IMG/VR virus record: IMGVR_UViG_3300042506_000517
Span: 1 to 51,165 of that record
DNA: 51,165 nt
Origin: a virus
Taxonomy: Duplodnaviria; Caudoviricetes
Direction: 5' to 3' (one strand)
Both the position numbers and the translations under genes were made by a program. The notes below the pieces were generated by a model. That model saw nothing but the letters and a program-made list of their open reading frames with translations, ran no database searches and was not told where the DNA came from. Below, piece after piece: positions 8,194 to 46,997 of this stretch. Within the stretch, counting starts at the first letter, position 1. Each line of letters begins with the position of its first letter.

Positions 8194-9195
8194 TTATGCG
8201 GATATTATATAAGGATCTCCAATAGTGCCAGATCCTTGACTATTCAATATTGCATAATTTATTCTAGCAATTACATCATCATATGATGACCATGCACTAA
8301 CCACAGTTTCAGTTGTACAACAATCATTAATATCTAATTTAGGCGAAGTCTTCGTAATTCTTTCACAATTATTTGCATTTGAAGTTGTTAAAAATGCATC
8401 GTTATATCTAATAGTCGCAACTGTTTGTGGTGTTGCGGCGCCACAAACCATAGTTGTTGCCGTAGTACCATAAATTTCCATTATCCCCGCTCCTGTGTTG
8501 GTTTCATTAATCTCCATTACTACACTAATATATCCTGGAGGACATGTAGGTTGTGATCCTGTACCATCCCAACATGGATCACACAATGGAGCGTCATCAC
8601 ATAGTGATTGACCCGAACAAGATCCTGGAGATCTTAATTCAACATAATAAAATACTTCAGGTGTCGGCGTTGGAGTAGGTGTAGGTGTCGGCTCAGGTGT
8701 TGGTGTAGGTGTCGGTGTAGGTGTCGGCTCAGGTGTTGGTGTAGGTGTTGGTGTTGGTGTCGGCGGTGGCGTTGGTGTAGGTGTAGGTGTCGGCTCAGGT
8801 GTAGGTGTTGGTGTCGGCGGTGGCGTTGGTGTAGGGGTCGGTGTAGGTGTAGGTGTCGGCTCAGGTGTAGGTGTTGGTGTAGGTGTTGGTGTTGGTGTCG
8901 GCGGTGGCGTTGGTGTAGGGGTCGGTGTAGGTGTAGGGGTCGGTGTAGGTGTAGGTGTTGGTGTTGGTGTAGGTGTAGGTGTAGGTGTTGGTGTTGGTGT
9001 TGGTGTTGGTGTTGGTGTTGGTGTTGGTGTTGGTGTAGGTGTAGGTGTAGGTGTAGGTGTAGTACCGGGCGGTGAATCTACGTCAATACATGCAATATTA
9101 TCATTGGTGAATGTTGCATACGCATAATTACCAACAGCAGCATAAACATTGTTTATGTCAACTGAATATCCATAAAGTACATTTTTATTAAACAT
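8194..9195 (-). CDS. Pro-Thr repeat protein with Cys-rich C-terminal domain
   Basis: Long (PT)n linker followed by Cys-rich region; N-terminus looks like part of a propeller repeat. Confidence 0.7.
8659..9063. repeat. hexanucleotide tandem repeat (GGTGTN on + strand) encoding (PT)n, tract 1
   Basis: Directly visible. Confidence 0.95.
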
Positions 9196-10021
9196 ATGTA
9201 TTAAATCCTGATAAATCTGCTTGCGTCAAAGAATAACTAGTACCAGCTAATGTGGTCATTGCGCTATTAATTGCAGAAATATGTGCGCATATATAAGATG
9301 AAAATCCAATTTGATTGCCCGCCGCTTTAATTCCTGGAGATCCTGTATACCACGTACCTAATAATACAATCTCCCCATTTAAAGGAACAAAAATTATATT
9401 TCCAGAATCTCCGCCGATAATTAACTCAGAATTATTATATCTTTCAGTATCAGTGGAAAATACCAAACTCAATTTTGGACTCGTAGGATCAGGGAGACTA
9501 GTACAAAGATCCAAATATTGGATACCATCACAATCTCCACATAAAAACTTTTTTTCTTGATCCATATAAAACAAAGGTAAATGTGGATTTAAAAATTGAA
9601 AAGTTGAAACCGTGGCACCTAATTGTAAATAATCTAAAAAATTTGATGGAAAGACTTTATAATATGTTAACGATGCATCTACGGTAGCACTTAAATAACC
9701 GATTGCTATATCAGTATAACCAGCGCAAGACGCTGCTCCAATCGTTTGTAAAGATGTGATTGTATATGTAAATCTTGTATTTGACGCATTTAAAAAAGAT
9801 ACGGAAGATCCAGCCGTTGTTCCGGGAGTCGTGTGCTTAGCTAATAAAACGTGTCTATTACTAATCAAAGTTGCGCCAATACCACCAGCACCAACTATAT
9901 CTGTAGATATTCCTGTAGTATCATATCCACTAACAGAACTCACAATACAAGTAGCATTTCGAGTAATAGGTAGATAAGTCGGAGGCGGACCATATGTTAC
10001 CATTAAATTTGTTGAACTCAT
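9188..10021 (-). CDS. trypsin-like serine protease
   Basis: [13 protein letters not shown] (His), DIAIG (Asp), GGDSG (Ser). Confidence 0.75.
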
Positions 10022-25965: not shown

Positions 25966-26883
25966 TCAATTTAATTTACCTCTGTCTAAATAAGACTGAG
26001 CAATTACCCTTTGATAACTTTTCATCTTATTTATTACTTTAGTAATTTGTTGTGTCTTACAAGATGATATTTCTCTAATGTACAGATACAACGCTTTTTT
26101 ATTAAACGCATCAATTCTATTGCAATTTCTGAATAATTCTATCACTGCATTCGCAATATTTAGATCTCTTTGTTTTGTAAATATACGACCAACATTTCTC
26201 TCCCAGTAATCTACCATTAATTTAAGAAATTCATCTGTTTCTACATCTTTATAATGTGCATCGACAGTTTGTAAACATACGGATGATTCACCTGGAGTAT
26301 CCGCAATGTTTACATGTTGATTATATTTTTTGTAATTACCGTTGTTATGAAAAATAAGATAATTTTTGGCAACTATACTAAAATAACTAAATGCTTTACC
26401 TTTACCTTCTTCAAATTTATTCATATTAGAAACCAAATGTGCTACAGTTTCTTTTTGAATTTCAATTGGACTATTGTCAAAATATGTAAATTTAAATGTA
26501 TTAAAAACATTTTCTACCAACTTATCAAATGCGTGTTTAATATAAGTTTCATAAAGATGATTTCTAATGTCTTGATTGTCTTCTTTGTTATATTTAATAA
26601 TATACATTTCTGTATCTTTAGTAAAATACATCTTTTCTGCGGATTTCTTTTTTTGTTCGGATTCTACTGAGGATTCTTCAACTATAATTTTAGGTATTGT
26701 TTTCCTAATATTTTTTTCTTGTACCAATGGTACATCTTTTTTCTTTTTATCGACTTTGTTTATAACCATTTTATTTTTTTGTTTAGTTGATTTTGTGGAT
26801 ACTTCTTTACCGAGATGTTTTACAACTTTTTTATCAACATCTATTTTTTTTAAAACTTTTATTTTTTTCTTGGAATTTTTCAT
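25966..26883 (-). CDS. probable phage late sigma factor (T4 gp55-like)
   Basis: Region-2-like segment ETVAHLVSNMNKFEEGKGKAFSYFSIVAKN; Lys-rich disordered N-terminus. Confidence 0.55.
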   Translation of the reverse strand: MKNSKKKIKVLKKIDVDKKVVKHLGKEVSTKSTKQKNKMVINKVDKKKKDVPLVQEKNIRKTIPKIIVEESSVESEQKKKSAEKMYFTKDTEMYIIKYNKEDNQDIRNHLYETYIKHAFDKLVENVFNTFKFTYFDNSPIEIQKETVAHLVSNMNKFEEGKGKAFSYFSIVAKNYLIFHNNGNYKKYNQHVNIADTPGESSVCLQTVDAHYKDVETDEFLKLMVDYWERNVGRIFTKQRDLNIANAVIELFRNCNRIDAFNKKALYLYIREISSCKTQQITKVINKMKSYQRVIAQSYLDRGKLN

Positions 26884-34986: not shown

Positions 34987-35368
34987 TGGTGGACATAAAG
35001 GGAGTCGAACCCTTGTCTTTAAGACCTTATCATAATTAGACTACGTGTGTATACATTTTTTAGTTGTTAAAAACAATTATATTAAATATAAAAACTAATT
35101 GTTCTAAAGATTTACAAAATACTCAATCAACAACGCAAATCAAATTGTTGATATAGCCTGATATTTTACACCCAATATAATTATCAGACATCATTATATT
35201 GAATGCGCAACCTTAAGCTGCCAATGCTACTGCTTCACGGGAGGTGAAGTTATAGCTAATTACATTATCTTCTGCAGTTAATGTTTTGATAGAAATTTTA
35301 AGAGGCCAACTATCATCCTCTACACGCCTAACTAATCAATTATCTTAAATCGATACCAGTATATGCCC
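34987..35368 (-). ncRNA. ssrA: tmRNA; tag reading frame AEDNVISYNFTSREAVALAA* at 35213..35275
   Basis: 5' GGGCATA pairs with 3' TATGTCC-ACCA with G3.U; T arm GGGTTCGACTCCC; GCA resume codon after TAACT; tag ends in LAA. Confidence 0.92.
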
Positions 35369-35376
35369 ATAAATTC

Positions 35377-35628
35377 TCAAAGATCAAAAAATTCTTTATA
35401 AGATATTGTTTCATCCAACCCAAGTTCTCGTCTCATATTAGCAAATAACTCTTTGCCTCTTTCAACTGAAACCGGCTGTTTTAACTCTTCTCTTTTAATA
35501 TCTTTAATAGTATTCTGTATTTCACCACGAATTCTATTAGATTCGTGTGGATTATTACTATCATCCGCTTTATCTAAAGCATCTTGTAATTCTTTTAACT
35601 TATTTTTTAAATCTTGCAATTTCTTCAT
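35377..35628 (-). CDS. hypothetical protein
   Basis: 83 aa, TATTTATA 3 nt upstream. Confidence 0.6.
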   Translation of the reverse strand: MKKLQDLKNKLKELQDALDKADDSNNPHESNRIRGEIQNTIKDIKREELKQPVSVERGKELFANMRRELGLDETISYKEFFDL

Positions 35629-35659
35629 TCTTATAAATATATAAGAAATATTCTAAAAG

Positions 35660-35733
35660 TGGAGCGGGTAGAGGGAATCGAACCCTCACATCAACCTTGG
35701 CAAGGTCGAAGGCTACCACTACATCATACCCGC
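35660..35733 (-). tRNA. tRNA-Gly(GCC)
   Basis: Cloverleaf, loop TTGCCAA, encoded CCA. Confidence 0.92.
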
Positions 35734-35740
35734 TTTAAAA

Positions 35741-35815
35741 TGGTGGACCGTAAGAGAATCGAACTCTTCCCTAAAGCTTGCAAAGCTCCCGTGCTACCAC
35801 TATCACTAACAGCCC
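35741..35815 (-). tRNA. tRNA-Ala(TGC)
   Basis: Loop TTTGCAA, G3.U70, CCA. Confidence 0.9.
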
Positions 35816-35823
35816 ATTTAAAA

Positions 35824-35852
35824 ATCTTACACCAATATATAGTGTTTGTCAA
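35824..35852 (-). promoter_or_regulatory. sigma70-type promoter
   Basis: TTGACA-17-TAAGAT just upstream of tRNA-Ala. Confidence 0.65.
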
Positions 35853-35861
35853 ATCAAAAAA

Positions 35862-35947
35862 CGGCGCAAACTACGGGAATCGAACCCATCACCGCTGATA
35901 ACTTAAGTTCAATCCTAAGCCAACGTTCTCACCAGATTGCAGCTAGC
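35862..35947 (-). ncRNA. tRNA-like RNA with extended anticodon arm, ending in CCG
   Basis: T arm GGGTTCGATTCCC, imperfect acceptor stem, CGTTG/CAGCG stem enclosing 23 nt. Confidence 0.55.
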
Positions 35948-35955
35948 ATATAAAA

Positions 35956-36031
35956 TGGTCGGGATGGAGAATTTTGCAATCTCAACCTCCTGTCTCCAAA
36001 ACAGGCCGTCTACTTTTGACATTACATCCCG
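35956..36031 (-). tRNA. tRNA-Pro(TGG), atypical T loop
   Basis: C1:G72, A73, loop TTTGGAG, CCA. Confidence 0.85.
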
Positions 36032-36038
36032 ATTAAAA

Positions 36039-36112
36039 TGGTTGGGGATGATGGAATCGAACCACCACAAGCAGATTCAAAGTCTGCCGCACTACCATTA
36101 TGCAAATCCCCA
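36039..36112 (-). tRNA. tRNA-Gln(TTG)
   Basis: Loop CTTTGAA, U1:A72, CCA. Confidence 0.92.
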
Positions 36113-36123
36113 GTTACTAAAAA

Positions 36124-36199
36124 TGGAGCGTGTGGTGAGGTTTGAACTCACGACATCAAGTTTGGAAAACTCGTACTCTACCAACTGAGTTACACACGC
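36124..36199 (-). tRNA. tRNA-Gly(TCC)
   Basis: Loop TTTCCAA, CCA. Confidence 0.92.
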
Positions 36200-36205
36200 A
36201 AAAAA

Positions 36206-36297
36206 TGGCGGTGAGGGAGGGATTCGAACCCTCGGTGGCTTTTAAGGACCACAACAGTTTAGCAAACTATCTCTTTAGACCGCTCAGACACCTCACC
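36206..36297 (-). tRNA. tRNA-Ser(GCT)
   Basis: Loop TTGCTAA, long variable arm, G73, CCA. Confidence 0.92.
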
Positions 36298-36380
36298 GTA
36301 AAATTTTGACAATCTCTGATTTCTTCATGGGACGATATTATCAGTCCTCAGTTCCAATGTCAAGTGGAGTTGTATTAAAA

Positions 36381-36467
36381 TGGCGGAAGCAACAGGAATC
36401 GAACCTGTGAGGGTTTATGGCCCCAGCTGTTTTCAAGACAGTTTCCTCGACCTACCGGACTACTTCC
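36381..36467 (-). tRNA. tRNA-Ser(TGA)
   Basis: Loop CTTGAAA, long variable arm, G73, CCA. Confidence 0.9.
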
Positions 36468-36482
36468 ATATAAATTAAAAAT

Positions 36483-36567
36483 TGGTGGGCATAGAGGGAC
36501 TTGAACCCCCACGGATTGCTCCCCGAGCTTCTAAGACTCGTGCGGCTGCCAATTACGCCATATGCCC
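36483..36567 (-). tRNA. tRNA-Leu(TAG)
   Basis: Loop CTTAGAA, variable arm, CCA. Confidence 0.92.
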
Positions 36568-36574
36568 AATAAAA

Positions 36575-36648
36575 TGGTCGGCCACGTCAGAATTGAACTG
36601 ACTCCACATGAACCCAAATCATGTATGCTACCGTAACACTTGTGACCG
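36575..36648 (-). tRNA. tRNA-Pro(TGG)
   Basis: C1:G72, loop TTTGGGT, CCA. Confidence 0.88.
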
Positions 36649-36655
36649 ATTAAAA

Positions 36656-36731
36656 TGGTAGGTGGTATAGGATTTAAACCTATGACATTTTGCGTGTAAA
36701 GCAAATGCTCTATCAACTGAGCTAACCACCC
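36656..36731 (-). tRNA. tRNA-Val(TAC)
   Basis: Loop TTTACAC, CCA. Confidence 0.88.
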
Positions 36732-36752
36732 ATTTAAAAATTGTTATATACT

Positions 36753-36859
36753 TTATGTCATTATCGCCAGATGGGTTCTGTATTTCAGCATAACACCCAG
36801 TGACCGATCAAATGTTTTAACTTATGTTGGGGACATCAGATAGAGTTTCAACCCCGTTC
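36753..36859 (-). ncRNA. unidentified structured RNA, copy 1 (head of tRNA array A)
   Basis: Homologous to 46556..46681 with 26-nt and 16-nt identical blocks and covarying stems. Confidence 0.7.
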
Positions 36860-36907
36860 GTTATATTTCTAATTTACCATACTTCGTCAAATTGTCAACC
36901 ACTAAAA

Positions 36908-36943
36908 TCAAAAACCCATCATTCTTTTTAAGAGTGACGGGTT
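36908..36943 (-). terminator. intrinsic terminator of attenuator A
   Basis: AACCCGTCA-CTCTT-AAA-AAGAA-TGATGGGTT followed by T-rich run. Confidence 0.75.
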
Positions 36944-36970
36944 GTATATTTTTAGCAAACAACCTCGTAC

Positions 36971-37024
36971 TCAACTTCCTGATGGGAGTTGACTGGCTTG
37001 ACTAGGTTGTGAAATTAAATTCAT
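36971..37024 (-). CDS. putative leader peptide A, MNLISQPSQASQLPSGS
   Basis: 17-codon ORF directly upstream of overlapping hairpins and terminator; residues match tRNA array A. Confidence 0.7.
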   Translation of the reverse strand: MNLISQPSQASQLPSGS

Positions 37025-37067
37025 ATTCTTACTAATATATAGTGTTTGAAATTGAAAATCAATAAAA

Positions 37068-38435
37068 TTATTTACATTTGAATAGATTTTTAATTTTTTC
37101 AGTTACCGTTTTTTGTTTAACTACTGGTTCGGGTTTATATGCGTTAGTGTTGTTGAGTAATTTAATTTCATTAATTACTGGCTCATTAGGTACTGGTCCA
37201 TATGGAACTGAATTGCCATAAGTGTTACTCATTGGCCACCATCCGCCTAAATTTTTCAATAAATTATCGGGTGATACATTAATATTATTTTCTTCTATAA
37301 CAATATTTTTAAATATAGATGATAGGTCAGGTAAATCTCTATCCATACTATATGCTAAAAACACTCCATCCCAAGCAGCATATTTTCCTGGTTTCCACTT
37401 CCATGTTCCTTTACCAGTTGTTACTACATTATTATTCAATACAACTAAATTGTGATGATATGCATAATTTACCGCCCACCATTCATTGCCATATTGTCTC
37501 ACATAATTCTGCGCACTTAATCTAATAAAACATGGAACATTAATTGCACTGTTTTGTTCTACGATAGTATCAATATTTTTTCCTGTATCAACATAATAAC
37601 ACATTCCTTCAAATCCATCAAAATTATTATGTCTTATCAAAGCTCCTTTTGTATTAGCAACACTAATACCAGCCAACCCTGAAAATTGAGTTTTACCTGC
37701 GTCACCCCTAAATGTACATTGTTCAACCGTACAACCAGTTGCAAATATTTTACCGGCTAAATTTCCACCTACTTGAACATGTACAATTTGTTCAGTATCA
37801 TATTCTGGATATCTATTGTTTCTGCCCGGTGAATGAAAATCACATCTTCTTACAGATGTTCCTTTTGAACCATCCTTAGAATTCTTTGATAACAATGATA
37901 TAATAATAAATGATGTAGCATTGTCTTTACCCACATTGAATCCTTTAAATTCACAATCTTCATATAGTGTATTACTACCAAATGTGGTACAACCTGCAGT
38001 TGTCAATTCATTGCCTTTAGCTTCATTTATTTCATCATAGTTACCGTCAAACGTTATACCTTTAAATACAATATCCTTACAATCAACACGACCATCACCA
38101 CCAGGACCAACGGCTTGAACCATTATTAATTGATTGCCATTAACTGCCAAATCTTTTCTACCACTCAAATGTTTGGATAATTTTAAAATTGTTTTACCTT
38201 TACCTTTTCCAATTATTGTAACACCACTTTCATTTTGTTTTGGATTAAACCCCCACAAAATACCACTTTTTAATACCTTTTCTGGATCTGTTTCACCGAT
38301 TCCTTCTCCTCCAATATAATATGTACCTTCATCAAGTTCACATTTATTGTTTTCCATTATACACTTATTGATTGCATATGCGGAGTTTACTTTTATATCA
38401 TTTGATTTTGCACCGTATTGTTCTGGTTTACTCAT
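37068..38435 (-). CDS. right-handed beta-helix (pectate lyase-like) protein; start likely MSKPEQ
   Basis: YGAK...N..AI...GTY, TIIGKG...TIL, ITFDGN, repeated xCxF turns; AAGGA SD-like sequence upstream of this ATG. Confidence 0.7.
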   Translation of the reverse strand: MSKPEQYGAKSNDIKVNSAYAINKCIMENNKCELDEGTYYIGGEGIGETDPEKVLKSGILWGFNPKQNESGVTIIGKGKGKTILKLSKHLSGRKDLAVNGNQLIMVQAVGPGGDGRVDCKDIVFKGITFDGNYDEINEAKGNELTTAGCTTFGSNTLYEDCEFKGFNVGKDNATSFIIISLLSKNSKDGSKGTSVRRCDFHSPGRNNRYPEYDTEQIVHVQVGGNLAGKIFATGCTVEQCTFRGDAGKTQFSGLAGISVANTKGALIRHNNFDGFEGMCYYVDTGKNIDTIVEQNSAINVPCFIRLSAQNYVRQYGNEWWAVNYAYHHNLVVLNNNVVTTGKGTWKWKPGKYAAWDGVFLAYSMDRDLPDLSSIFKNIVIEENNINVSPDNLLKNLGGWWPMSNTYGNSVPYGPVPNEPVINEIKLLNNTNAYKPEPVVKQKTVTEKIKNLFKCK

Positions 38436-38507
38436 ATATTTTTCCTTTTGTATAAACGAAAAACCTGTCATTTGATGACAGGTTTACAATTAATATTTTT
38501 CTTTTTA

Positions 38508-38648
38508 TTATTTACTACCACTTGGTCTCGGAGTCCCAGTTGGCTTTGGTGTGCCTGTTGGCTTTGGTGTGCCTGTTGGTTTTGGTGTGCCTGTTGGTTT
38601 TGGAGTTGAATTAGGAGTCCCAGTTGGTTTAGGTGTTGGTGTTGGCAT
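38508..38648 (-). CDS. 46-aa (TPKPTG)n repeat peptide (frame differs from ORF track)
   Basis: MPTPTPKPTGTPNSTPKPTGTPKPTGTPKPTGTPKPTGTPRPSGSK; repeat variation is synonymous in this frame. Confidence 0.7.
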   Translation of the reverse strand: MPTPTPKPTGTPNSTPKPTGTPKPTGTPKPTGTPKPTGTPRPSGSK

Positions 38649-38692
38649 AAATTATATATTTCTTTCTTCAAATATACATATATTGTACAAAT

Positions 38693-38724
38693 AAAAAACC
38701 GTTAACTTTTTACAGTTAACGGTT
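38693..38724 (-). terminator. intrinsic terminator after outer-membrane protein gene
   Basis: AACCGTTAACT...AGTTAACGGTT plus T run. Confidence 0.8.
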
Positions 38725-38749
38725 GTAATACTTTATTTTAATTTAAGAA

Positions 38750-39436
38750 TCAGAATGTATACTTAACACCTGCGGAATATAGAACTTCAGCAGTCAATTC
38801 TTCAGTAGCAAAACGGTATTTAGCAGTACTAAAGTTGTTGTCAATTACACCAACTTCAAGATATGGTACAAAATTGCCAATTGGACGAGATACATTCAAC
38901 TTGGCAGTAACAGCATCATAACGTTCAAACTTAACGAGTTCTGCAGCTGGAGTTGCATTAAACCCAAATGGTAGTGCAAATGTACGATACACACCAACAC
39001 CAGCACCAGCTTGTTCTAGGTTAATATCATAAGCACCACGAACATATGGTGTTACCCATTTATTCTGTGCTTCCAACTTTACACCAAATTCTGTGGAATT
39101 CTTAATGCCAAATCCACCTGCTTGATGACGAGTTGCAGTCGCATCCAATCGCAATGTCAACCATTCAAAGGTCTTAATACCCTTACCTGTACCAACTGTC
39201 CAATGTGATTGATCTACACCGTCCTTTGGCAACAACACACCACTAACATATACATCAGCATACTTTAGTGACTTTACTGCGGCAAAACCTGCATAAGCAG
39301 TACCTTCTGCACGACTTACACCGTTAACGATGTATTGGTTATTATAACCTGCATCAAATGTCAATGATGATGCGTCTTCTGCGGTTGCGGATGATGCTGC
39401 AAAAAGAGCAGCCAATACTAATACTAGTTTCTTCAT
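38750..39436 (-). CDS. outer-membrane beta-barrel protein
   Basis: Sec signal peptide (ATA-E), alternating amphipathic strands, C-terminal AGVKYTF beta-signal. Confidence 0.8.
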   Translation of the reverse strand: MKKLVLVLAALFAASSATAEDASSLTFDAGYNNQYIVNGVSRAEGTAYAGFAAVKSLKYADVYVSGVLLPKDGVDQSHWTVGTGKGIKTFEWLTLRLDATATRHQAGGFGIKNSTEFGVKLEAQNKWVTPYVRGAYDINLEQAGAGVGVYRTFALPFGFNATPAAELVKFERYDAVTAKLNVSRPIGNFVPYLEVGVIDNNFSTAKYRFATEELTAEVLYSAGVKYTF

Positions 39437-39646
39437 ATTTATTTTATTTTAACTTTCTTGTTTCTGTTTAACCGATAAACTTCACTCAAAGTTTATTCAC
39501 TCAACTTATTCATCATACATCGATCTTCAAAAATATCAACTTATTATATAATGTCAGTCTAAAAATAAATATTGAATTCATTTTATAAAAATTAATAATA
39601 ATTTCTACACAATATATATCTATATATAAAAAACTATTTTACGCTT

Positions 39647-40447
39647 ATGAATACTAATATTACAGCAAATGCCACAGTTACAAAAAAATTAGACGTTACA
39701 AAATTAATTACGTACTTAGCAGTTCCAATTATTTTTTTAGGTCTAATTGTCTATTTTGTATTCTTAAATAACAGTTATAAAAACTTGACGGATAAATTTA
39801 CAAAACAAGTTGAAATTGTAAATAGTCAAAATTTAATCATAACAAACATATCACTGAAAAATTCAGAACTATCCACGTTAATTAAAAATTATGATCAAAA
39901 ATTTAGCTTCCTACAAACAAATGTAACACACCTAAAACAACTTACAGACAATCTAAAAAAATCATCTGATGATAAAGACATAAAAATTAAATCGCTTGAA
40001 CAAGAAAAAGGATCACTAGAATTAGATGTCAAGTCACTACGCAATACTATAGTACAAATGACAGCAGAAATCGTAGAATATAGCGACGAATTGAAAAAAG
40101 CAAAAACTGAACCCGAACAAAATGATTTGATTAAAAAGATCGTTACACTCACTTCAGAAAGAAATTTCTTGCAAGATCAAGTCAAACAATATGAAAAAAT
40201 TATTGCTGAATTAAGAAAAGAAAATACCAATTTAACCGCTAAATTAAGAGAAAATCTCAAAAAAGAAGGATACGAATTCAACCATCAAATTGGTGAACAT
40301 CCAAAAGGAGCAGAATTATTAATGAAAATTTCCAGAGAAAATTTAAATAAAAAATTGGACGAACTAAATAAATCAAAAGAAAAAGAAGAACCAAAAATTG
40401 AAGAAAAACCCAAAAAACAAGGGTTTTTTAAGAATCTTTTCAAATAA
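39647..40447 (+). CDS. membrane-anchored coiled-coil protein
   Basis: One TM helix then long heptad region. Confidence 0.7.
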   Translation: MNTNITANATVTKKLDVTKLITYLAVPIIFLGLIVYFVFLNNSYKNLTDKFTKQVEIVNSQNLIITNISLKNSELSTLIKNYDQKFSFLQTNVTHLKQLTDNLKKSSDDKDIKIKSLEQEKGSLELDVKSLRNTIVQMTAEIVEYSDELKKAKTEPEQNDLIKKIVTLTSERNFLQDQVKQYEKIIAELRKENTNLTAKLRENLKKEGYEFNHQIGEHPKGAELLMKISRENLNKKLDELNKSKEKEEPKIEEKPKKQGFFKNLFK

Positions 40448-40459
40448 AATTATACAATT

Positions 40460-40933
40460 ATGCCATACGAATACCACGCAAAAGTTACAGAAGTTATAGA
40501 CGGTGACACAGTTGTTATTGATATTGACCTCGGATTTGATGTTGTCTTTATAAACCAAAAAGTACGACTTTTAGGAATTGATACCCCAGAAAGCCGTACT
40601 TCAGACAAAACAGAAAAAGCGTTTGGCGTAGCAAGCAAAGAATACGCAAAGAAATTTGTTGAAGCTTGCAAAGACAAAAATGTAGTCATTAGAACCCATA
40701 TCAGTGATGATGTAGATTCCAATGGCAGAGAGAAATTTGGTCGTCTTTTAGGTGAAATCATCAATCCAGTCACCAAAAAGGTTCTAAATGATGAACTAAT
40801 TACTAATGGTTATGCCGTCCGTTATATGGGCGAAAATAAAGATAAAGTAAAAGATCAACACCTAAAAAATAGAAAACGCCTCATTGACGAAGGCGTTGTG
40901 AAAATGTCTTATAAAGACGCTGGTATACTATAA
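40460..40933 (+). CDS. thermonuclease (SNase) family nuclease
   Basis: VIDGDT, VRLLGIDTPE, KFGRLL, LITNGYA. Confidence 0.92.
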   Translation: MPYEYHAKVTEVIDGDTVVIDIDLGFDVVFINQKVRLLGIDTPESRTSDKTEKAFGVASKEYAKKFVEACKDKNVVIRTHISDDVDSNGREKFGRLLGEIINPVTKKVLNDELITNGYAVRYMGENKDKVKDQHLKNRKRLIDEGVVKMSYKDAGIL

Positions 40934-40948
40934 AAATAGTATTCTATA

Positions 40949-42475
40949 TTATCTAAGTACTGTAAATTTCAAGCTCTTAATATTGAGCTTGAAATTTTTA
41001 TTTTGCACTTTGCTCAATACTAATTTAATTGACTTTGGATATCCAGATAAAGATGTATTCAAATTATTTGTCAATGATTGTTGACCAATACCAATTGTCA
41101 TTGGAAATTCATGTGCAGCATTTAAATTTGTATCTGGTACTCTACCATCCAATACATTAATACGTCCAATATAATTAGTCTGATTTACATATACACTAAT
41201 ATTAAACTTGCCCGCATATGAAATTGGACCTGTTTCAACCGTAAATACTGACAACTTAGAATCTACATTCAACAAATCTTTTAATTGTTGATTTTCAGAT
41301 ATATCCAATACAAGTCCATCTTTTGTCAATTCACCACTTACAGGAATTGTTACTGACTTTGGTATAGTTTTAACAACCGTAGAAGTCAATTTAATAGGTT
41401 CATCAGACGGTGGTTGATATGTAATATTAGTAAGTTTAGTGACTATATCCTTAACAGTTACCTTTAAGGGACTACCATCTATGTCTGTATATGTATATTC
41501 TTGTTGTCCCCAAGGACCATTTGGATCAGGCATTTCATTCTTATACAATGACCAAATACGATCAATATTACCATGATGCATAAAGAATATAGGATCATTC
41601 GCAGCATATCTCAATGTTCCCATATTTCTATTATTACCAAAACGTGTGCCTACCCAATCATGTCCATTATTATGTGGTCCTTGTTCCAATAACCCTTGTC
41701 CACTTGGTGTAGTTGGATTTTCTACCGCTTTACCACCAAAAAGTTCAAATGGAGCTTGTAAAATCGCATTTATATAATCACGACTCATATACCACTTTGT
41801 TTCCGTAATGTGTTGCTTAGAATCAGCACTTACTTCATTACTAGGGTCCATTGTTGGTTGTAAAATAGATGGCTTTCTATTACCGTCATATAAAGCCAAA
41901 TTATCAAAACCAAGACTGTCCGCCTGTACCATATCTTCTTGCGTCAAATCATATCCAAATAATGGACTCGCCAATCCAGAATCTTTACGAAGCTTTGTGT
42001 TTGGTATCTCTTGATGATTACTCCAATCCCAATATGGATACGCAAATGCATCCCCATTCCATCCAAAATTAGTCTTTAATATATTATCCAATATACGTTC
42101 CAAGAAGTAAACATATCCACGATGCCATGGCAAAAAATGCCAACTCCAATGCACTTGTACCATTGATACTCCTGAATTTGTACAATGATACGCATGTAAC
42201 TTAGCATAATTCTCCCACTGCAATGTACTGTTCAACGCTATATCCTTACGCATATATCCAACTGCACGACACAAATTCTTTACTTCATCATCACTCAAAT
42301 CATAAAAACTCTTACGAATTCGTGGCGGTTCATTTTTAAAATTAAACCTCTTGCCACCAGTCGCTGGTCCACACGTTGGATCATTAATCGGTTGTTTAGA
42401 TGTTGCATTTAAATTTAATCCAAGTGTACCCGTAAGTAACCCAGACTTTAAAAAAGTTCTTCTTGTTGTATCCAT
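40949..42475 (-). CDS. Tat-exported tyrosinase/polyphenol oxidase
   Basis: TRRTFLK Tat motif; CuA HAYHC...VHWSWHFLPWHR; CuB HNNGH...DPIFFMHHGNIDRIW. Confidence 0.9.
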   Translation of the reverse strand: MDTTRRTFLKSGLLTGTLGLNLNATSKQPINDPTCGPATGGKRFNFKNEPPRIRKSFYDLSDDEVKNLCRAVGYMRKDIALNSTLQWENYAKLHAYHCTNSGVSMVQVHWSWHFLPWHRGYVYFLERILDNILKTNFGWNGDAFAYPYWDWSNHQEIPNTKLRKDSGLASPLFGYDLTQEDMVQADSLGFDNLALYDGNRKPSILQPTMDPSNEVSADSKQHITETKWYMSRDYINAILQAPFELFGGKAVENPTTPSGQGLLEQGPHNNGHDWVGTRFGNNRNMGTLRYAANDPIFFMHHGNIDRIWSLYKNEMPDPNGPWGQQEYTYTDIDGSPLKVTVKDIVTKLTNITYQPPSDEPIKLTSTVVKTIPKSVTIPVSGELTKDGLVLDISENQQLKDLLNVDSKLSVFTVETGPISYAGKFNISVYVNQTNYIGRINVLDGRVPDTNLNAAHEFPMTIGIGQQSLTNNLNTSLSGYPKSIKLVLSKVQNKNFKLNIKSLKFTVLR

Positions 42476-42478
42476 ATT

Positions 42479-42646
42479 TTATTTTGTTTTATTTGTTACC
42501 CAACCAATTCGATGTTTATACATCCAATCAGTCAATGCCTTTTCAAATCCTATATCATTACCTTGCTTTTCACTTTCAATCCATTTATGCTTTTCTATCT
42601 CATTCTTTAATTCCATAAACTTTTGATATAGATTATCTTTTTGCAT
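42479..42646 (-). CDS. 55-aa DUF4032-like protein (not in ORF track)
   Basis: MQKDNLYQKFMELKNEIEKHKWIESEKQGNDIGFEKALTDW...; HKW..SE..G.D.G...A..DW signature. Confidence 0.7.
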   Translation of the reverse strand: MQKDNLYQKFMELKNEIEKHKWIESEKQGNDIGFEKALTDWMYKHRIGWVTNKTK

Positions 42647-42701
42647 ACAAAAATAAATACAAATTTCAAACGCAAATGTAACATTTTTGTTTATTTAAAA
42701 A

Positions 42702-42779
42702 TGGAGTCCCGTGTTGGATTTGCACCAACGATTTTAGAGTTTTGCAGACTCTCGCTTTTGTCTACTCAGCCAACGGGAC
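42702..42779 (-). tRNA. tRNA-Cys(GCA)
   Basis: Loop CTGCAAA, U73, CCA. Confidence 0.9.
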
Positions 42780-42799
42780 ATAAAAATATAATATCAAAG

Positions 42800-43714
42800 T
42801 TACCAAGCCCTACATGACCAATACCTGGCTTTAGTACGTGGACCAGGATTATCACAATTATGTCTTGCTCTAAAGTTTTTTCTACGTGCTGGATTATTCT
42901 TTTTTATGGTCATTCTTTTACCTTTAGCTGAAGATCCACCAAATCCAAAATTTACCTTAACCACTTTTCCTTTAGGATTTTTAACGTATACTTTAAATTT
43001 CTTGACATCACCTTGCATTCGTTTACCAAGGCTCACTTTACGACCACGATATTCCGCTTCACATAATGGTTGTTTATATTCTCGCATGAATTGAACAAAT
43101 TCTTTTATATCTTGTTCACTTTCAACATCATATTCTTCTATATTGTCGTCATCTTCTAAACCAGGTGTAAGTTTTTTTGAAGTACGAGATACAATTCCTA
43201 ACTTTTTAAAAATAAAAGATATAGCTTGACGTGTTACTCCTAGTTTTTTTGCAATCTCATCATGCGTCATTCCACTATTATACAAATCTTTAATTTGTTT
43301 CAAATCTTCAGGTTTTACTTTTAACCGATGTAATGGTTGTTGATTTTTTGGTTTTATTCCTGCTTTTTTTAAAGCAGCATATACACTGTGCGGACTGACA
43401 TTAAGTTTTTTTAAAATTTCTGAAAATGACACTCCGCTTTGATATAAATCAACAATTTGTTTATGAATTGGTTTAATAGCATGTTGATTTTTTGGTTTTA
43501 TTCCTGCTTTTTTTAAAGTAGCGTACACACCGTATGCACTAACATTAAGTTTTTTTAAAATTTCTGACAATGCCACTCCGCTTTGATATAAATCAACAAT
43601 TTGTTTCTGAATTTCAAGTGGTAGTTTCATACCAATTTCATTTAAAAACAATTCTTCTTTTAAAGATTGTAATTCTATATCATCAAAAAAATTTCTGTAT
43701 GTAAAAGGAATCAT
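42800..43714 (-). CDS. tandem HTH repeats fused to a basic C-terminal phage domain
   Basis: Two 48-aa repeats plus a third HTH; KKFKVYV...VNFG...RRKNFRARH.C...ARYWSC. Confidence 0.7.
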   Translation of the reverse strand: MIPFTYRNFFDDIELQSLKEELFLNEIGMKLPLEIQKQIVDLYQSGVALSEILKKLNVSAYGVYATLKKAGIKPKNQHAIKPIHKQIVDLYQSGVSFSEILKKLNVSPHSVYAALKKAGIKPKNQQPLHRLKVKPEDLKQIKDLYNSGMTHDEIAKKLGVTRQAISFIFKKLGIVSRTSKKLTPGLEDDDNIEEYDVESEQDIKEFVQFMREYKQPLCEAEYRGRKVSLGKRMQGDVKKFKVYVKNPKGKVVKVNFGFGGSSAKGKRMTIKKNNPARRKNFRARHNCDNPGPRTKARYWSCRAW

Positions 43715-43761
43715 AATTCATTATAAATATAATACACTTTAAATTAAAGTGTATTTTAAAA

Positions 43762-43837
43762 TGGAGCCTCCAGTAGGTACCGCCTCCGTTGGTTTCATCA
43801 TTACCAATGATATGTAATACTTTTATAATATGAAGAC
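43762..43837 (-). tRNA. tRNA-Thr(GGT), T stem degenerate (possible pseudogene)
   Basis: Loop TTGGTAA, acceptor GTCTTCA/TGGAGGC, CCA; T stem mismatched. Confidence 0.6.
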
Positions 43838-43888
43838 AAATAAAACTTTAAATTCTATCTTGTATCTACTCCAACATATATATCAAAT

Positions 43889-44671
43889 ATGTCTACACAA
43901 ACAAATACATCCACTCAAATAAACAATTCCGCTACCGCAACATCTGATAAAAATTCAGCAAGTGTTTCTTATACAAATACCGCAGAAGCTTCTGCAGGCG
44001 CAAGTGTAGGAAATAAAAACGCATCAATAGGTGTTGAAACATCAGTTAAAACTGGTACAGAAGCATCCGCTGCCGGTGGACTTGATGGTAACAACGTCTA
44101 CGCAAACGCAAGTTATAGTAGCGGTACAGAAGCTCACATTGTTGTAGATGGTAAAGTACAAAGTAATGGTGTAGGTGTTGCAGGTACTGCAGACGCTTAC
44201 GCAGTCAGTGGTACAAAAGCATCCGCAAATGTTCAAGCTGGTGACAAAGGTGTCGCAGTTGGTGCAGAAGGTTCTATTGGTACTGCTGTAGGTGTTGACG
44301 CTTCAGGTACAGCAAATGTAAGAGGCGCATCAGTTACCGCAGGTTCAGGAGTTAGTGTAGGTGAACAAGTTGGTGGTGGTGGTTCCGCTCAAGCCACTAT
44401 GGATAAAGGTAAAGTTACCGTTGGTGTAAGTGGTGACGTTGCAGTATTAGTTGGTGTAAAAGTAGATGTAAGTACTACAATTGATACAAATAAAGTTGTA
44501 CAAGATGCTAATACAGTCGCAAAAGCAACTCAACCAGTAGTTCAACAAACTACCAATGTAGCAAATACCGCCGTCAAAGAAACAACAAATGTTGTAAATA
44601 ATGCAGGTAATGCAATTAATGATGGTGCCAAAAAAGCAGGCAACTCAATCAAAAAAGCATTCAGATTCTAA
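43889..44671 (+). CDS. Gly/Ala/Ser/Val-rich repetitive beta-strand protein
   Basis: 260-aa ORF with strong codon bias, convergent with tRNA array B. Confidence 0.8.
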   Translation: MSTQTNTSTQINNSATATSDKNSASVSYTNTAEASAGASVGNKNASIGVETSVKTGTEASAAGGLDGNNVYANASYSSGTEAHIVVDGKVQSNGVGVAGTADAYAVSGTKASANVQAGDKGVAVGAEGSIGTAVGVDASGTANVRGASVTAGSGVSVGEQVGGGGSAQATMDKGKVTVGVSGDVAVLVGVKVDVSTTIDTNKVVQDANTVAKATQPVVQQTTNVANTAVKETTNVVNNAGNAINDGAKKAGNSIKKAFRF

Positions 44672-44673
44672 AA

Positions 44674-44750
44674 TGGTACACCCGGCAGGACTTGAACCTG
44701 CAACCTTCTCGGTAGAAACGAGTTGCTCTATCCAATTGAGCTACGAGTGC
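44674..44750 (-). tRNA. tRNA-Arg(TCT)
   Basis: Loop TTTCTAC, CCA. Confidence 0.88.
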
Positions 44751-44756
44751 ATTGAA

Positions 44757-44826
44757 TTTGTTAGTAGTTATGTTCTCACCAGTGATCACTGAGTAAAGGG
44801 AATTGAACCCAACATTTACTAACAAA
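44757..44826 (-). ncRNA. permuted tRNA-like RNA (T arm precedes D-like element) closed by a long terminal stem
   Basis: TTTGTTAGTA/TACTAACAAA stem, ATGTT/AACAT, GGGTTCAATTCCC, CTGGTGAGAAC. Confidence 0.5.
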
Positions 44827-44828
44827 AA

Positions 44829-44902
44829 TGGTTGGCTATCACGGTACCGCCCCGTGTTCTTTCGATTATCAGTCGAATGCTCTACTATTGAGCTAATAGC
44901 CA
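44829..44902 (-). tRNA. tRNA-Ile(GAT)
   Basis: Loop CTGATAA, T loop GGCGGTA, CCA. Confidence 0.88.
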
Positions 44903-44909
44903 ATTGAAA

Positions 44910-44985
44910 TGGCGAGGTATATGGGTGCTGCCCCCACTATCTTTTCCGTGACAGGGAAATGAGTCTGCTGTTCCTCTTATACCCC
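44910..44985 (-). tRNA. tRNA-Asp(GTC)
   Basis: Loop CTGTCAC, G73, T loop GGCAGCA. Confidence 0.88.
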
Positions 44986-44991
44986 AAAAAA

Positions 44992-45066
44992 TGGTAGGGC
45001 TCTACGGTAACGATCCGTATTCTACTGGTTAAAAGCCAGTTGCTTCACCGTTAAAGCTTGAACCCC
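44992..45066 (-). tRNA. tRNA-Lys(TTT)
   Basis: Loop CTTTTAA, T loop ATCGTTA, CCA. Confidence 0.88.
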
Positions 45067-45074
45067 ATTGAAAT

Positions 45075-45153
45075 TGGTGCAAGTGGTGGATACTGCCTCC
45101 ACACGAATATTCTGATTAAGAGTCAGATGCCCGTCTATTGTAGCTTCACTTGC
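45075..45153 (-). tRNA. tRNA-Lys(CTT)
   Basis: Loop CTCTTAA, T loop GGCAGTA, CCA. Confidence 0.85.
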
Positions 45154-45239
45154 ATTAAAAAATTGTATCTACTATTGTCAACGAACTATAATCATCTTAC
45201 CACACTTTATCCGCCCGTCAACAATCTTATTAAAAAATA

Positions 45240-45377
45240 TTCTGAACAAATCAACTTTATATGAGTGGTAGCTGCACCCACTCTCCGTATTCCCAAATTA
45301 ACCGTCTGGCCACATTCAAGGGCTTTCACTTGGATAGTTGATACCGGAGTATAGCGTTGCCTTCGCCTAGTTCAGAA
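45240..45377 (-). ncRNA. unidentified structured RNA inside array B
   Basis: Terminal TTCTGAAC/GTTCAGAA stem plus several internal complementary pairs. Confidence 0.5.
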
Positions 45378-45382
45378 AAAAA

Positions 45383-45457
45383 TGGTGGCTCAGGTCAGAC
45401 TTGAACTGACAACACGAAGTTCTTCAGACTTCTGCTCTACATTGGAGCTACTGAGCC
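45383..45457 (-). tRNA. tRNA-Phe(GAA)
   Basis: Loop CTGAAGA, CCA. Confidence 0.9.
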
Positions 45458-45467
45458 ATTAAAGTAA

Positions 45468-45548
45468 TTGACAAGTCAAAGGAATTGAACCTTTTCGGAA
45501 CAGAGTCGCCTGCTCCTTTACCACGCCCTGCGCACTAGCACCTGTCAA
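45468..45548 (-). ncRNA. tRNA-like RNA without CCA
   Basis: TTGACAGGT/ACTTGTCAA stem, GGAGCAG/CTGTTCC arm, T arm AAAGGTTCAATTCCTTT. Confidence 0.5.
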
Positions 45549-45552
45549 AATC

Positions 45553-45695
45553 AAGATGTATGGTTGGATTCGAACCAACGGCTACTTTTACAACCGTAAC
45601 ATGACGGATTGTTTTTTACAACCTAACATAAGATTTTTACGGGCTTACCCCATAGTTAGGTACTCTGCTCTGCCAACTGAGCTACATACAATCTT
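45553..45695 (-). ncRNA. tRNA-like RNA with a large structured insert replacing the anticodon arm
   Basis: Canonical D arm TAGCTCAGTTGGCAGAGC, T arm GTTGGTTCGAATCCAAC, TGTATG/CATACA stem, no CCA. Confidence 0.6.
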
Positions 45696-45700
45696 TAAAA

Positions 45701-45786
45701 TGGTGGGGTATGTAGGTAATGCGCCTACCGAGCCTTTCAGCGCCAGATTTACAGTCTGGACCATCTCTTTAATGGTATAATACCCC
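45701..45786 (-). tRNA. tRNA-Tyr(GTA)
   Basis: Loop CTGTAAA, long variable arm, CCA. Confidence 0.88.
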
Positions 45787-45807
45787 GAAAAATTATTTAC
45801 GGAAAAA

Positions 45808-45882
45808 TGGCTCTGGGAGAATGAATTGAACACTCATAAGGCACATTAACAGTGTGCTGCATTACCATTATGCTATCCCAGA
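45808..45882 (-). tRNA. tRNA-Asn(GTT)
   Basis: Loop CTGTTAA, G73, CCA. Confidence 0.9.
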
Positions 45883-45890
45883 ATTGAAAT

Positions 45891-45968
45891 TGGCTCCAGC
45901 CCTTGGCTCCGCCCCAAGCTCGACACGGTTTAACAGACCGCCGGTTACACTAAGTTTCCTTGACTGGA
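45891..45968 (-). tRNA. tRNA-Asn(GTT), second divergent copy
   Basis: Loop CTGTTAA, T loop GGCGGAG, CCA. Confidence 0.85.
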
Positions 45969-46029
45969 GTTAAAAAAATGTTTACTGGATTTCAACGAAC
46001 GTTCCATCTACTACTTATAACCTCGTCAG

Positions 46030-46059
46030 ATTATAACATTCAATGTCTATCAGTGTCAA
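46030..46059 (-). promoter_or_regulatory. consensus sigma70 promoter inside array B
   Basis: TTGACA-18-TATAAT with extended -10 TG. Confidence 0.7.
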
Positions 46060-46169
46060 TACATTACTTACTACTTCAACTATTGATTCAGATTCGAACT
46101 GAATTACTTCTGCTCATATGCAGTTGTTTTACCAATTAAACTACGTTCGCTGCCTTCACCTAATGTATT
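46058..46169 (-). ncRNA. tRNA-like RNA or pseudo-tRNA lacking a normal acceptor end
   Basis: D arm TAGTTTAATTGGTAAAAC, CTGC/GCAG with 6-nt loop, T arm TTCAGTTCGAATCTGAA, distal AATACATTA/TAATGTATT stem. Confidence 0.5.
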
Positions 46170-46177
46170 TGAAAAAA

Positions 46178-46252
46178 TGGCAAAGTGGGTGGGTAACGCT
46201 CCCACATAAAGCAGTTTTGGAGACTGCTGCATTTCTTGTCTGCCACCACCTT
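46178..46252 (-). tRNA. tRNA-Trp(CCA)
   Basis: Loop CTCCAAA, G73, CCA. Confidence 0.88.
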
Positions 46253-46259
46253 ACTAAAT

Positions 46260-46337
46260 TGGTGCTTCAATGAGGATTCGAACCCCAAACTCAATGTCCG
46301 TAGCATTGCGTGATATATCCATTTTCACCACCGAAGC
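46260..46337 (-). tRNA. tRNA-Arg(ACG)
   Basis: Loop CTACGGA, CCA. Confidence 0.9.
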
Positions 46338-46343
46338 ATAAAT

Positions 46344-46419
46344 TGGGGTGATATACGAGTGCTGCCCTCGTTCCGTGAGTTTCACAAACTCAAATGCTAA
46401 CTGTTACACCAATATCACC
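46344..46419 (-). tRNA. tRNA-His(GTG)
   Basis: Loop TTGTGAA, G-1:C73, CCA. Confidence 0.9.
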
Positions 46420-46431
46420 ATTACTATAAAT

Positions 46432-46513
46432 TGGAGCCGTTGACAGGATTCGAACCTGCGATGATTTTCCAGTTTACAAAACTGGTGTTTTCAACCACTC
46501 AACTCACAACGGC
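46432..46513 (-). tRNA. tRNA-Thr(TGT)
   Basis: Loop TTTGTAA, CCA. Confidence 0.9.
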
Positions 46514-46555
46514 GTTAAAATTACTTATACACATACCAAATAACAATAACCTCAG

Positions 46556-46681
46556 TTATGTCATTATCGCCCTATAGGTTCTGTATTTCAGCATAACACC
46601 CACGGACCAATCAATTGATTTTCCCAGTCTTTACCTTTGGTTACTGGCGGTGGCTCAACAGATGGAGTTTCAAGCCTGTCC
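46556..46681 (-). ncRNA. unidentified structured RNA, copy 2 (head of tRNA array B)
   Basis: Homologous to 36753..36859 with a longer variable hairpin; preceded by TTGACG-16-TACACT. Confidence 0.7.
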
Positions 46682-46814
46682 TTATCTTCTATAAGTGTAT
46701 CAGAAATTATTGCTTCGTCAACACCTTTTTAAAATTTCACTTTCATTGCCCAATGAACCGCTTACGCCGCTCACTGTTTAACTACTCTACCACACTCTCA
46801 AAGAACTTCAACAC

Positions 46815-46852
46815 AAAAAACAAAAAAACCGTCACTTATTCAGTTGACGGTT
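46815..46852 (-). terminator. intrinsic terminator of attenuator B
   Basis: AACCGTC-A-ACT-GAATA-AGT-GACGGTT followed by TTTTTGTTTTTT. Confidence 0.85.
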
Positions 46853-46880
46853 GACATTGTTTCACTTTATCCACTTCACC

Positions 46881-46958
46881 CTACACAATATCACCGCCAA
46901 CACATTCACAATCCGTAAATGTATTCCAACGCTTAATATGTGTATAATTAACTCTCAT
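46881..46958 (-). CDS. putative leader peptide B, MRVNYTHIKRWNTFTDCECVGGDIV
   Basis: 25-codon ORF whose last codons are complementary to the terminator 5' arm; residues match tRNA array B. Confidence 0.75.
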   Translation of the reverse strand: MRVNYTHIKRWNTFTDCECVGGDIV

Positions 46959-46997
46959 TACTACAATATATATAACCAAAAATAAAAAACAACAATA

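Follow-up and report, generated by a model that had tools for sequence, protein, structure and literature searches.

Two phage tRNA arrays headed by putative leader-peptide attenuators whose codons match the tRNAs they precede

The classical transcription attenuators of enterobacteria, i.e., trp, his, leu and pheA as well as the multivalent ilvGMEDA (Ile/Leu/Val) and thr (Thr/Ile), carry runs of control codons for one to three amino acids. In the pheST attenuator of E. coli, the leader open reading frame (ORF) pheM senses how much charged transfer RNA (tRNA) is available and regulates a component of the translation apparatus. T-boxes recognize a single uncharged tRNA by direct contact with their specifier loop. 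Here we describe a 51,165-nucleotide (nt) stretch of DNA (IMG/VR record IMGVR_UViG_3300042506_000517, hereafter the window), part of a large uncultured myophage, in which two tRNA arrays, A and B, are each preceded by a short ORF (leaders A and B) with codons matching the tRNAs of that array, and by a predicted antiterminator/terminator pair. We put the probability at roughly 80% that these are ribosome-driven transcription attenuators, which would add tRNA transcripts when the codons of the array are decoded slowly.

The toiL upstream ORF of E. coli topAI-yjhQP reports ribosome stalling at several codons; it differs in that it senses antibiotics, works through translation control and Rho-dependent termination, and has no codon match to its product (PMC12121999). 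The closest published case, the trn long tRNA array of Anabaena PCC 7120, has been characterized as a set of spare tRNAs that is switched on under impaired translation, but its control is ascribed to a hypothetical DNA-binding repressor at promoter repeats (PMC8421152), and neither "attenuat" nor "leader" occurs in the text. Phage tRNAs have also been reported to replace tRNAs cut by defence nucleases; these rely on a strong promoter or a cleavage-resistant tRNA, with no sensing step described (PMC11555353, PMC10264068), and "attenuat" is absent from the texts of the two papers. Full-text literature searches, whose coverage left out most subscription journals, listed no account of tRNA-array attenuation, in line with an earlier note on this DNA that knew of no such system.

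The phage switches share several predicted elements with attenuators of the ilv/thr type: a short ORF whose control codons are cognate to what is made downstream, mutually exclusive hairpins (1:2, 2:3 and 3:4), an intrinsic terminator, and a segment 2 that a ribosome at the stop codon would cover. Three differences can be noted. First, the genes under the proposed control encode tRNAs and transfer-messenger RNA (tmRNA) rather than biosynthetic enzymes. Second, 5 to 20 amino acids are sampled, mostly through single dispersed codons, whereas the ilv/thr type uses runs for one to three; tandem runs of the trp/his/thr/ilv kind are absent from both window leaders, whose codons cover 6 (A) and 11 (B) array amino acids. 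Third, the switches occur in phages and in long mobile-type arrays, with downstream promoters that probably give basal expression. Judged at the level of sequence, the features of the classical attenuator family are present and only the codon runs, which are typical but not obligatory, absent. The pheST system, in comparison, senses a single amino acid and its product is a synthetase, not a tRNA. T-boxes share an antitermination that responds to tRNA state but, unlike a leader, contact the tRNA itself, and neither stem I with its specifier loop nor the T-box antiterminator consensus is present in the window (no Rfam match at the gathering score or at E<=5). New here are the kind of gene under control (tRNA genes), how many amino acids are sampled, and arrays sorted to match.

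ARAGORN and Rfam identify 18 tRNAs and a tmRNA in the window, and seven additional degenerate tRNAs, i.e., Pro(TGG) at 35957-36031, His, Asn, Tyr, Lys(CTT), Asp and Thr(GGT), each present a 7-nt anticodon loop on a 5-bp stem. The array A set comprises seven amino acids (Val, Pro, Leu, Ser, Gly, Gln and Ala) with the tmRNA at its end, and the array B set comprises 11, with the last Thr and the Cys gene past inserted protein genes. The earlier note held that the two arrays share no amino acid, and these predictions, together with inspection of the anticodon arms, bear this out. No intact Glu tRNA was found in the window.

Both leaders begin 5-10 nt after a TATATATT motif and end, at the stop codon, 55-59 nt before a T tract. 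The layout first described from the letters alone, namely motif, short ORF, alternative hairpins with terminator, a shared RNA and the tRNAs, is complete at both arrays. Leader A is composed of five Ser, three Gln, two Pro, two Leu, and one each of Ala, Gly, Asn and Ile; the two residues outside the set (Asn and Ile, both array B amino acids) sit at codons 2 and 4. Leader B contains all 11 array B amino acids together with three Val, two Gly and one Glu; Val and Gly belong to array A, so that these and Glu are imperfections of the match, and within codons 2-18 the share in the set rises to 15/17. The ORF compositions confirm the absences previously listed (R, Y, T, H, K, W, F, D, C, E and V from leader A; S, Q, P, A and L from leader B). 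Both Ser codon boxes occur in leader and array, and the same holds for Arg. A random partition of amino acids between the two arrays reproduces the agreement with P=0.0011 (types) or 0.0026 (residues), and nucleotide shuffles reach the residue match with P=0.0002 for leader A and 0.013 for leader B. The match is specific to the reading frame: for leader A it is 0.88 in the ORF frame vs. 0.43 and 0.36 in the other two, and for leader B 0.75 vs. 0.43 and 0.61, with one reverse-strand frame of leader B scoring 0.83.

The strongest argument comes from other genomes, which divide the amino acids among their arrays in other ways and have leaders that follow suit. In one such genome (G014), a leader contains 12 of the 12 types of its own array and a second leader all six types of the next array. 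In the cultured phage RsoM2USA, 33 of 35 residues of a leader at MG752970.1 87361-87248 fall in its own array; this leader lacks Ser, Tyr, Trp, Cys and His, the tRNAs of which form another array. A second RsoM2USA leader (112124-112047), missed by our search rule owing to a broken T tract and spotted by eye, has all nine types and 21 of 23 residues in its own array, and when the two leaders are swapped, only 5/35 and 5/23 residues match. The cyanophage S-PM2 has an unannotated ORF (NC_006820.1 118368-118472) behind TATAAATA in the same layout, with 10 of 12 array types and a predicted antiterminator duplex of -23.9 kcal/mol. Among 121 bacterial-genome loci drawn by the same T-arm pattern as the viral loci below, 19 array-proximal terminators yielded three short ORFs; one ORF resembles an ordinary small gene, and the other two stand before the sub-arrays of a block of 27 tRNAs carried by an Acidobacteriota assembly (L506, CAWILL010000004.1), matching 5/5 and 11/11 types, although the antiterminator of the second scores weakly. 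In most ordinary tRNA clusters of bacteria, leader ORF and antiterminator are both missing. The ORFs flanking the L506 array resemble Ro60/TROVE and RtcB by eye, a hint of a link to RNA repair.

The breadth of the arrangement was assessed on 122 viral loci drawn, blind to leaders, by a tandem tRNA T-arm pattern (80 with full flanks), with a leader defined as a short ATG ORF ending 40-70 nt before a T tract. Such an ORF is present at 16 of 25 array-proximal terminators vs. 24 of 235 control terminators (Fisher P=4e-9). Six of these 16 ORFs, compared with none of the 24 controls, have an amino-acid alphabet more complete than chance (P<0.01), and five of the six hold all 20 residues in 33-42 codons; complete arrays tend toward leaders with nearly all 20 amino acids. 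Applied to all loci, with probable false positives kept, the rule yields 25 leader families, two of which have fewer than five tRNAs and were dropped from the permutation. In the remaining 23, leader-array agreement is 321 vs. 245±13 under permutation (P<=1e-5); it is 278 vs. 219±11 (P<=1e-5) in 20 families after merging likely homologs, and 189 vs. 162±8 (P=0.0015) in 13 leader-blind families. These family statistics ignore the tree, and arrays that have degenerate tRNAs or run off the end of a locus are not fully recorded. For partial arrays, 220 of 336 residues match where 162 are expected, and in 11 of 16 such families the annotated frame scores higher than the two others (P=0.004). Complementarity to the terminator arm (z<=-2) is found in 19 of 25 families vs. 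7 of 89 control terminators with an ORF. That leader composition tracks array content across families, which the earlier note had proposed to examine by permutation, is thus upheld.

Competing hairpins with a terminator had been claimed for both leaders, and they are present in the predicted folds. The antiterminator duplex of leader A has -16.1 kcal/mol (z=-3.8 vs. shuffles) and that of leader B -24.2 kcal/mol (z=-5.6). The energies of protector, antiterminator and terminator are -17.5/-14.3/-14.1 kcal/mol for A and -22.1/-21.8/-11.3 kcal/mol for B; a generic terminator scan listed neither leader terminator, both stems being bulged. With a ribosome modelled on the leader, stalling at codons 5-9 (A) or 8-15 (B) brings the probability of the terminator to less than 0.2, and it is about 0.9 with the ribosome at the stop codon as well as without a ribosome. 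This switching by ribosome position holds in the model for both window leaders at three footprint sizes; for an alternative, slightly different stem of A, only codons 8-9 open the terminator. If kinetic trapping is considered, the antiterminator would be available up to about codon 14 (A) or 16 (B) before the 3′ arm of the terminator is made. The segment 2 strand of B is formed by its last six codons, so two of the three Val codons and both Gly codons need not be sensory. The earlier claim that stalling on any of 6-11 tRNA species would open the array therefore stands in part: mid-leader stalls do open the terminator in the model, but only a subset of codons does so, part of leader B is antiterminator strand, and leader A does not sample Val. 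In the model, the best-supported sensed codons would be Ser, Gln and Pro in A, and Ile, Lys, Arg, Trp, Asn, Thr and Phe in B.

Table 1. Coordinates of the two array heads and their arrays in the window
Feature	Position	Strand	Remarks
TATATATT motif before leader A	37034..37041	-	candidate phage late promoter
Leader A ORF, 17 codons	36971..37024	-	14/16 residues in array A set
Segment 2, switch A (stop codon and next 13 nt)	36958..36973	-	predicted to pair with ORF (protector) or segment 3 (antiterminator)
Segment 3, switch A	36931..36946	-	overlaps 5′ arm of terminator
Predicted intrinsic terminator hairpin A	36913..36943	-	-14.1 kcal/mol; T-rich tract after
Sigma70-like site downstream of terminator A	36871..36898	-	10/12, extended -10
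Shared structured RNA, copy A	36758..36856	-	no Rfam family
tRNA array A	35660..36731	-	Val, Pro, Leu, Ser, Ser, Gly, Gln, Pro (degenerate), Ala, Gly
tmRNA gene ending array A	34987..35368	-	ARAGORN, Rfam
TATATATT motif before leader B	46965..46972	-	candidate phage late promoter
Leader B ORF, 25 codons	46881..46958	-	18/24 residues in array B set
Segment 2, switch B (codons 20-25)	46884..46902	-	predicted antiterminator 5′ strand
Segment 3, switch B	46842..46861	-	overlaps 5′ arm of terminator
Predicted intrinsic terminator hairpin B	46827..46852	-	-11.3 kcal/mol; long T tract after
Sigma70-like site downstream of terminator B	46694..46721	-	9/12, extended -10
Shared structured RNA, copy B	46561..46678	-	no Rfam family
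tRNA array B	44674..46513	-	Thr, His, Arg, Trp, Asn, Asn, Tyr, Phe, Lys, Lys, Asp, Ile, Arg
tRNA-Thr(GGT), degenerate	43757..43832	-	past inserted opposite-strand gene
tRNA-Cys(GCA)	42702..42779	-	

In the mechanism that we propose, transcription would start at a phage promoter and yield an almost leaderless RNA. A ribosome arriving at the stop codon would cover segment 2 and let the terminator form, and without a ribosome the 1:2 protector would form and lead to termination as well. A ribosome stalled mid-leader would instead free segment 2 to capture the 5′ arm of the terminator, and RNA polymerase would enter the array. In addition, the 1:2 hairpin could serve as a pause site for RNA polymerase, coupling translation to transcription. 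The signal would most likely be a loss of usable tRNA through host anticodon nucleases, tRNA decay or heavy late demand; compared with amino-acid starvation, tRNA loss is the likelier signal because more tRNA helps only in the first case.

The TATATATT motif would act as the phage promoter and is a candidate for a late one. It has some likeness to the T4-type late promoter, for which the consensus is TATAAATA at -13 to -6 (PMC1524935); TATAAATA itself, letter for letter, stands before the leader of S-PM2 and before one of the RsoM2USA leaders. A looser form of the window motif has 69 matches in the window and lies <=25 nt from the start of 15 ORFs of at least 50 residues. No gp55 homolog showed up in the window, and PHROGs returned no family for a 305-residue ORF (25966-26883) suspected to encode a late sigma factor. 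Sigma70-like promoters downstream of both terminators had been raised as a caveat; such sites are there (the TTGACA of the site behind terminator A is kept in relatives), and more lie within both arrays, so the arrays are probably transcribed without their leaders too. The switch would then likely set an extra, probably late, supply over a basal one. Sigma70-like sites are not over-represented in the region (58 vs. 50.8±7.4). The stretch is present in lake metatranscriptomes: array A is covered by contigs assembled from the RNA libraries of several lake studies, and leader A with its terminator by some of them. One of these is a contig at 36662-37014 (run X5), and three more extend as far as 36898-36915, which is still upstream of where the sigma70 transcript is predicted to start. 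Dips of contig cover over neighbouring genes, at 37272-37805 and above 46884, and a fall-off above 37074 with contigs continuing in other letters, were not used as evidence.

Conservation was followed in 41 loci found by the shared RNA motif, 36 of which have enough upstream DNA. The motif, ORF and terminator are kept in 36 of 36 A-type loci, with 17 distinct ORFs and 14 peptides; loss of the ORF in relatives had been named as a finding that would speak against the idea. Eleven 17-codon leader A ORFs differ by 10 synonymous and 37 non-synonymous variants, and 25 of the 37 replacements stay in the array set, for which the background share is about 0.43. Selection appears to act on codon class rather than on the peptide; a peptide that drifts while its alphabet stays is as expected for a codon sensor. 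In ten close relatives, indels of the B-type ORF are multiples of three, whereas spacer indels have any length. A predicted antiterminator duplex is found in 27 of 27 aligned rows, with different sequences in the L024/L137/L153 and L199/L217 branches. In two loci (L019 and L021, the same as L442 and L447), a 66-codon ORF that contains a repeated segment has leader A fused to its end; the terminator and array are unchanged. Fine tracking within the B family is mixed, as L194 has Leu in both leader and array, whereas L215 and L260 carry Leu, Gln or Pro tRNAs without matching leader codons.

Several observations weigh against attenuation by these leaders. Leader A lacks Val although Val heads array A, and the leader ORFs show no synonymous excess and hence no coding signal for translation. 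At equilibrium, only about five codons of A and eight of B open the terminator, and many distant leaders (e.g., L024, L197, L309, L340 and that of S-PM2) stay terminated and would need kinetic trapping. Sigma70-like sites lie inside array A (36363 and 35852) and array B (46059, 12/12, and 45221), and the RNA-library contigs indicate presence only, not strand, ends or level. Five families (L088, L185, L193, L318 and L340) have no significant match, and the S-PM2 match taken alone is not significant either (23/31 residues, P=0.08). No leader was found in 11 of 13 cultured phages with scanned tRNA stretches, or for a relative with 56 tRNAs (G002). Finally, related loci served for tuning the thresholds of the rule, and the set drawn blind to leaders had been looked at before the statistics were computed.

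The alternative that survives best, though we regard it as unlikely, is that the switches are real attenuators sensing a general slow-down of translation (antibiotics, ribosome damage or energy loss) in the manner of toiL, with the codon match adding little in vivo. The folding model permits this, as any mid-leader stall opens the terminator, and the near-complete alphabets of complete arrays are general sensors in effect; the Anabaena array is reported to respond to general translation stress (PMC8421152). However, a general sensor has no need of an array-specific alphabet, yet partial arrays are matched under several partitions, swapped pairs fail, and leader replacements mostly remain within the array set. 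It is decidedly improbable that the leaders mainly sense amino-acid starvation through uncharged tRNA, with arrays sorted by amino-acid supply. A ribosome cannot distinguish a missing from an uncharged tRNA, as is established for classical attenuators (PMC12121999), and the match does stand at the level of amino acids; however, extra tRNA would supply no amino acid, the partitions vary between genomes and do not follow biosynthetic families, and both Ser and both Arg boxes are represented.

Slightly less credible again is the proposal that conserved RNA structure ahead of constitutive terminators gives rise to the ORFs as mere by-products that are never translated, with the arrays using their own sigma70-like promoters and the match due to chance or reader selection. 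The lack of synonymous excess, the promoter-like sites within the arrays and the fused leader of L019/L021 fit this proposal. Against it stand the frame specificity of the match, its survival of rule-based picking and permutation, the frame-keeping indels of the close B family, and the control terminators and ordinary bacterial clusters, which mostly have neither ORF nor antiterminator. The notion that the small peptides act in trans, as reported for peTrpL, with terminators that merely end their transcripts, can be dismissed as very improbable, since the 36 A-type loci encode 14 different peptides and a trans peptide need neither mirror a tRNA set nor overlap an antiterminator.

Leader-peptide attenuation matched to the arrays, as originally suggested, is retained on the strength of the codon match (permutation, frame, terminator controls and partitions), but with a narrower reach and without the shared RNA. 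Of the two purposes suggested for it, a response to host anticodon-nuclease defence seems the likelier and a response to starvation the weaker, as extra tRNA would cure no amino-acid shortage. We lean, with no great confidence, toward the broader idea that many large phages and some bacterial long arrays assay the tRNA pool of the cell. Their arrays would be sorted by amino acid into sets, each with a leader spelling its own set (all 20 amino acids where the array is complete), so that nuclease attack on any sampled tRNA would induce exactly the block that holds the replacement. Such a counter-defence would be inducible and matched to its target, and S-PM2 and RsoM2USA would be cultured phages that have it. 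The reason for tRNA genes in phages, and whether phages regulate them, has long been an open question. A leader that spells the monitored tRNAs would report directly on the shortages that the phage anticipates, and the leader match would explain why arrays are sorted by amino acid. Attenuation would be extended from amino-acid synthesis to tRNA genes, and to sensors for up to 20 amino acids. The idea of defence compensation would become open to simple reporter tests, and the unannotated S-PM2 candidate offers a cultured system.

A copy of the shared RNA lies before the first tRNA of each array, as the earlier note had seen, and the two copies have a 66-nt core that is 88% alike. It consists of two hairpins with invariant loops and covarying stems. 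In an alignment fitted to the model, 98% of cells are paired and six pairs change on both sides (0/500 shuffles), and on this covariation we take it to be a real structure. A further copy is present at L186 3962-4086, with a weak match in G002, and the RNA is limited to its own clade (24 matches in 83 sources). It is absent from L137/L194/L227 (G005) and from all distant leader loci searched. As G005 keeps both leaders without it, the RNA was rejected as a component of the switch, a role that had been considered for it.

Among the cultured phages, the rule returned no leader for the T5-like IrisVonRoten, phiSUSP1, MD18, TSW001, SH-Ab 15599, XacN1, DLP_6, RTH11 and Paride, for Thalassa, whose array start is outside the scanned stretch, or for the second S-PM2 array and the third RsoM2USA group; OspM_OC has a short ORF but no antiterminator. 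In S-PM2, tRNA-Arg, the candidate leader and its terminator are overlapped on the opposite strand by the annotated gene p162 (NC_006820.1 118191-118547, L420), perhaps a shadow ORF. Possible amber suppressors, namely tRNAs that have CUA as their anticodon and that ARAGORN labels Pyl, occur in the large phages L185, L189, L196, L199, L403, L405 and L412, which include XacN1, RsoM2USA and DLP_6.

Array B also contains several degenerate tRNA-like elements in its main block. Across the two arrays, elements without a clear anticodon lie, all on the minus strand, at 35863-35947, 45469-45546, 46087-46143 and 44758-44826, the last with a T-arm-like hairpin near its 5′ end. Another (45553-45692, minus strand) keeps intact D and T arms, with about 60 extra nt replacing the anticodon arm. 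Between the Phe and Lys tRNAs, a 145-nt RNA (45236-45380, minus strand) has an 8-bp terminal stem, a folding z of only -1.2 and no Rfam match. The array is interrupted between Arg and Thr by a 260-residue ORF rich in Gly, Ala, Val and Ser (43889-44671, plus strand); in relatives such as L128 and L208, tRNA-Cys(GCA) immediately follows the array B Thr genes. In the relatives L005, L028, L192 and L215, a recurrent tRNA with an 8-nt anticodon loop (ARAGORN "???(ctct)") lies between the array B His and Arg genes and possibly has a four-base anticodon.

The baseplate wedge, primase and PhoH of the window match phage families in PHROGs, and contigs carrying close relatives are as long as 296 kb; the nearest record has no tRNA. 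No close relative was found among cultured phages, as the leader region has only two chance 25-nt matches and PhoH is below 60% identity. Two minus-strand ORFs without a PHROGs match could hint at the host: one of 508 residues with a twin-arginine-like start, tyrosinase-like by eye (40949-42475), and one of 228 residues resembling an outer-membrane barrel by eye (38750-39436). Proteins of the tail region (8194-12042, minus strand) have long Pro-Thr repeat linkers, and a 46-codon ORF of Pro, Thr, Gly and Lys repeats (38508-38648, minus strand) is followed by a terminator.

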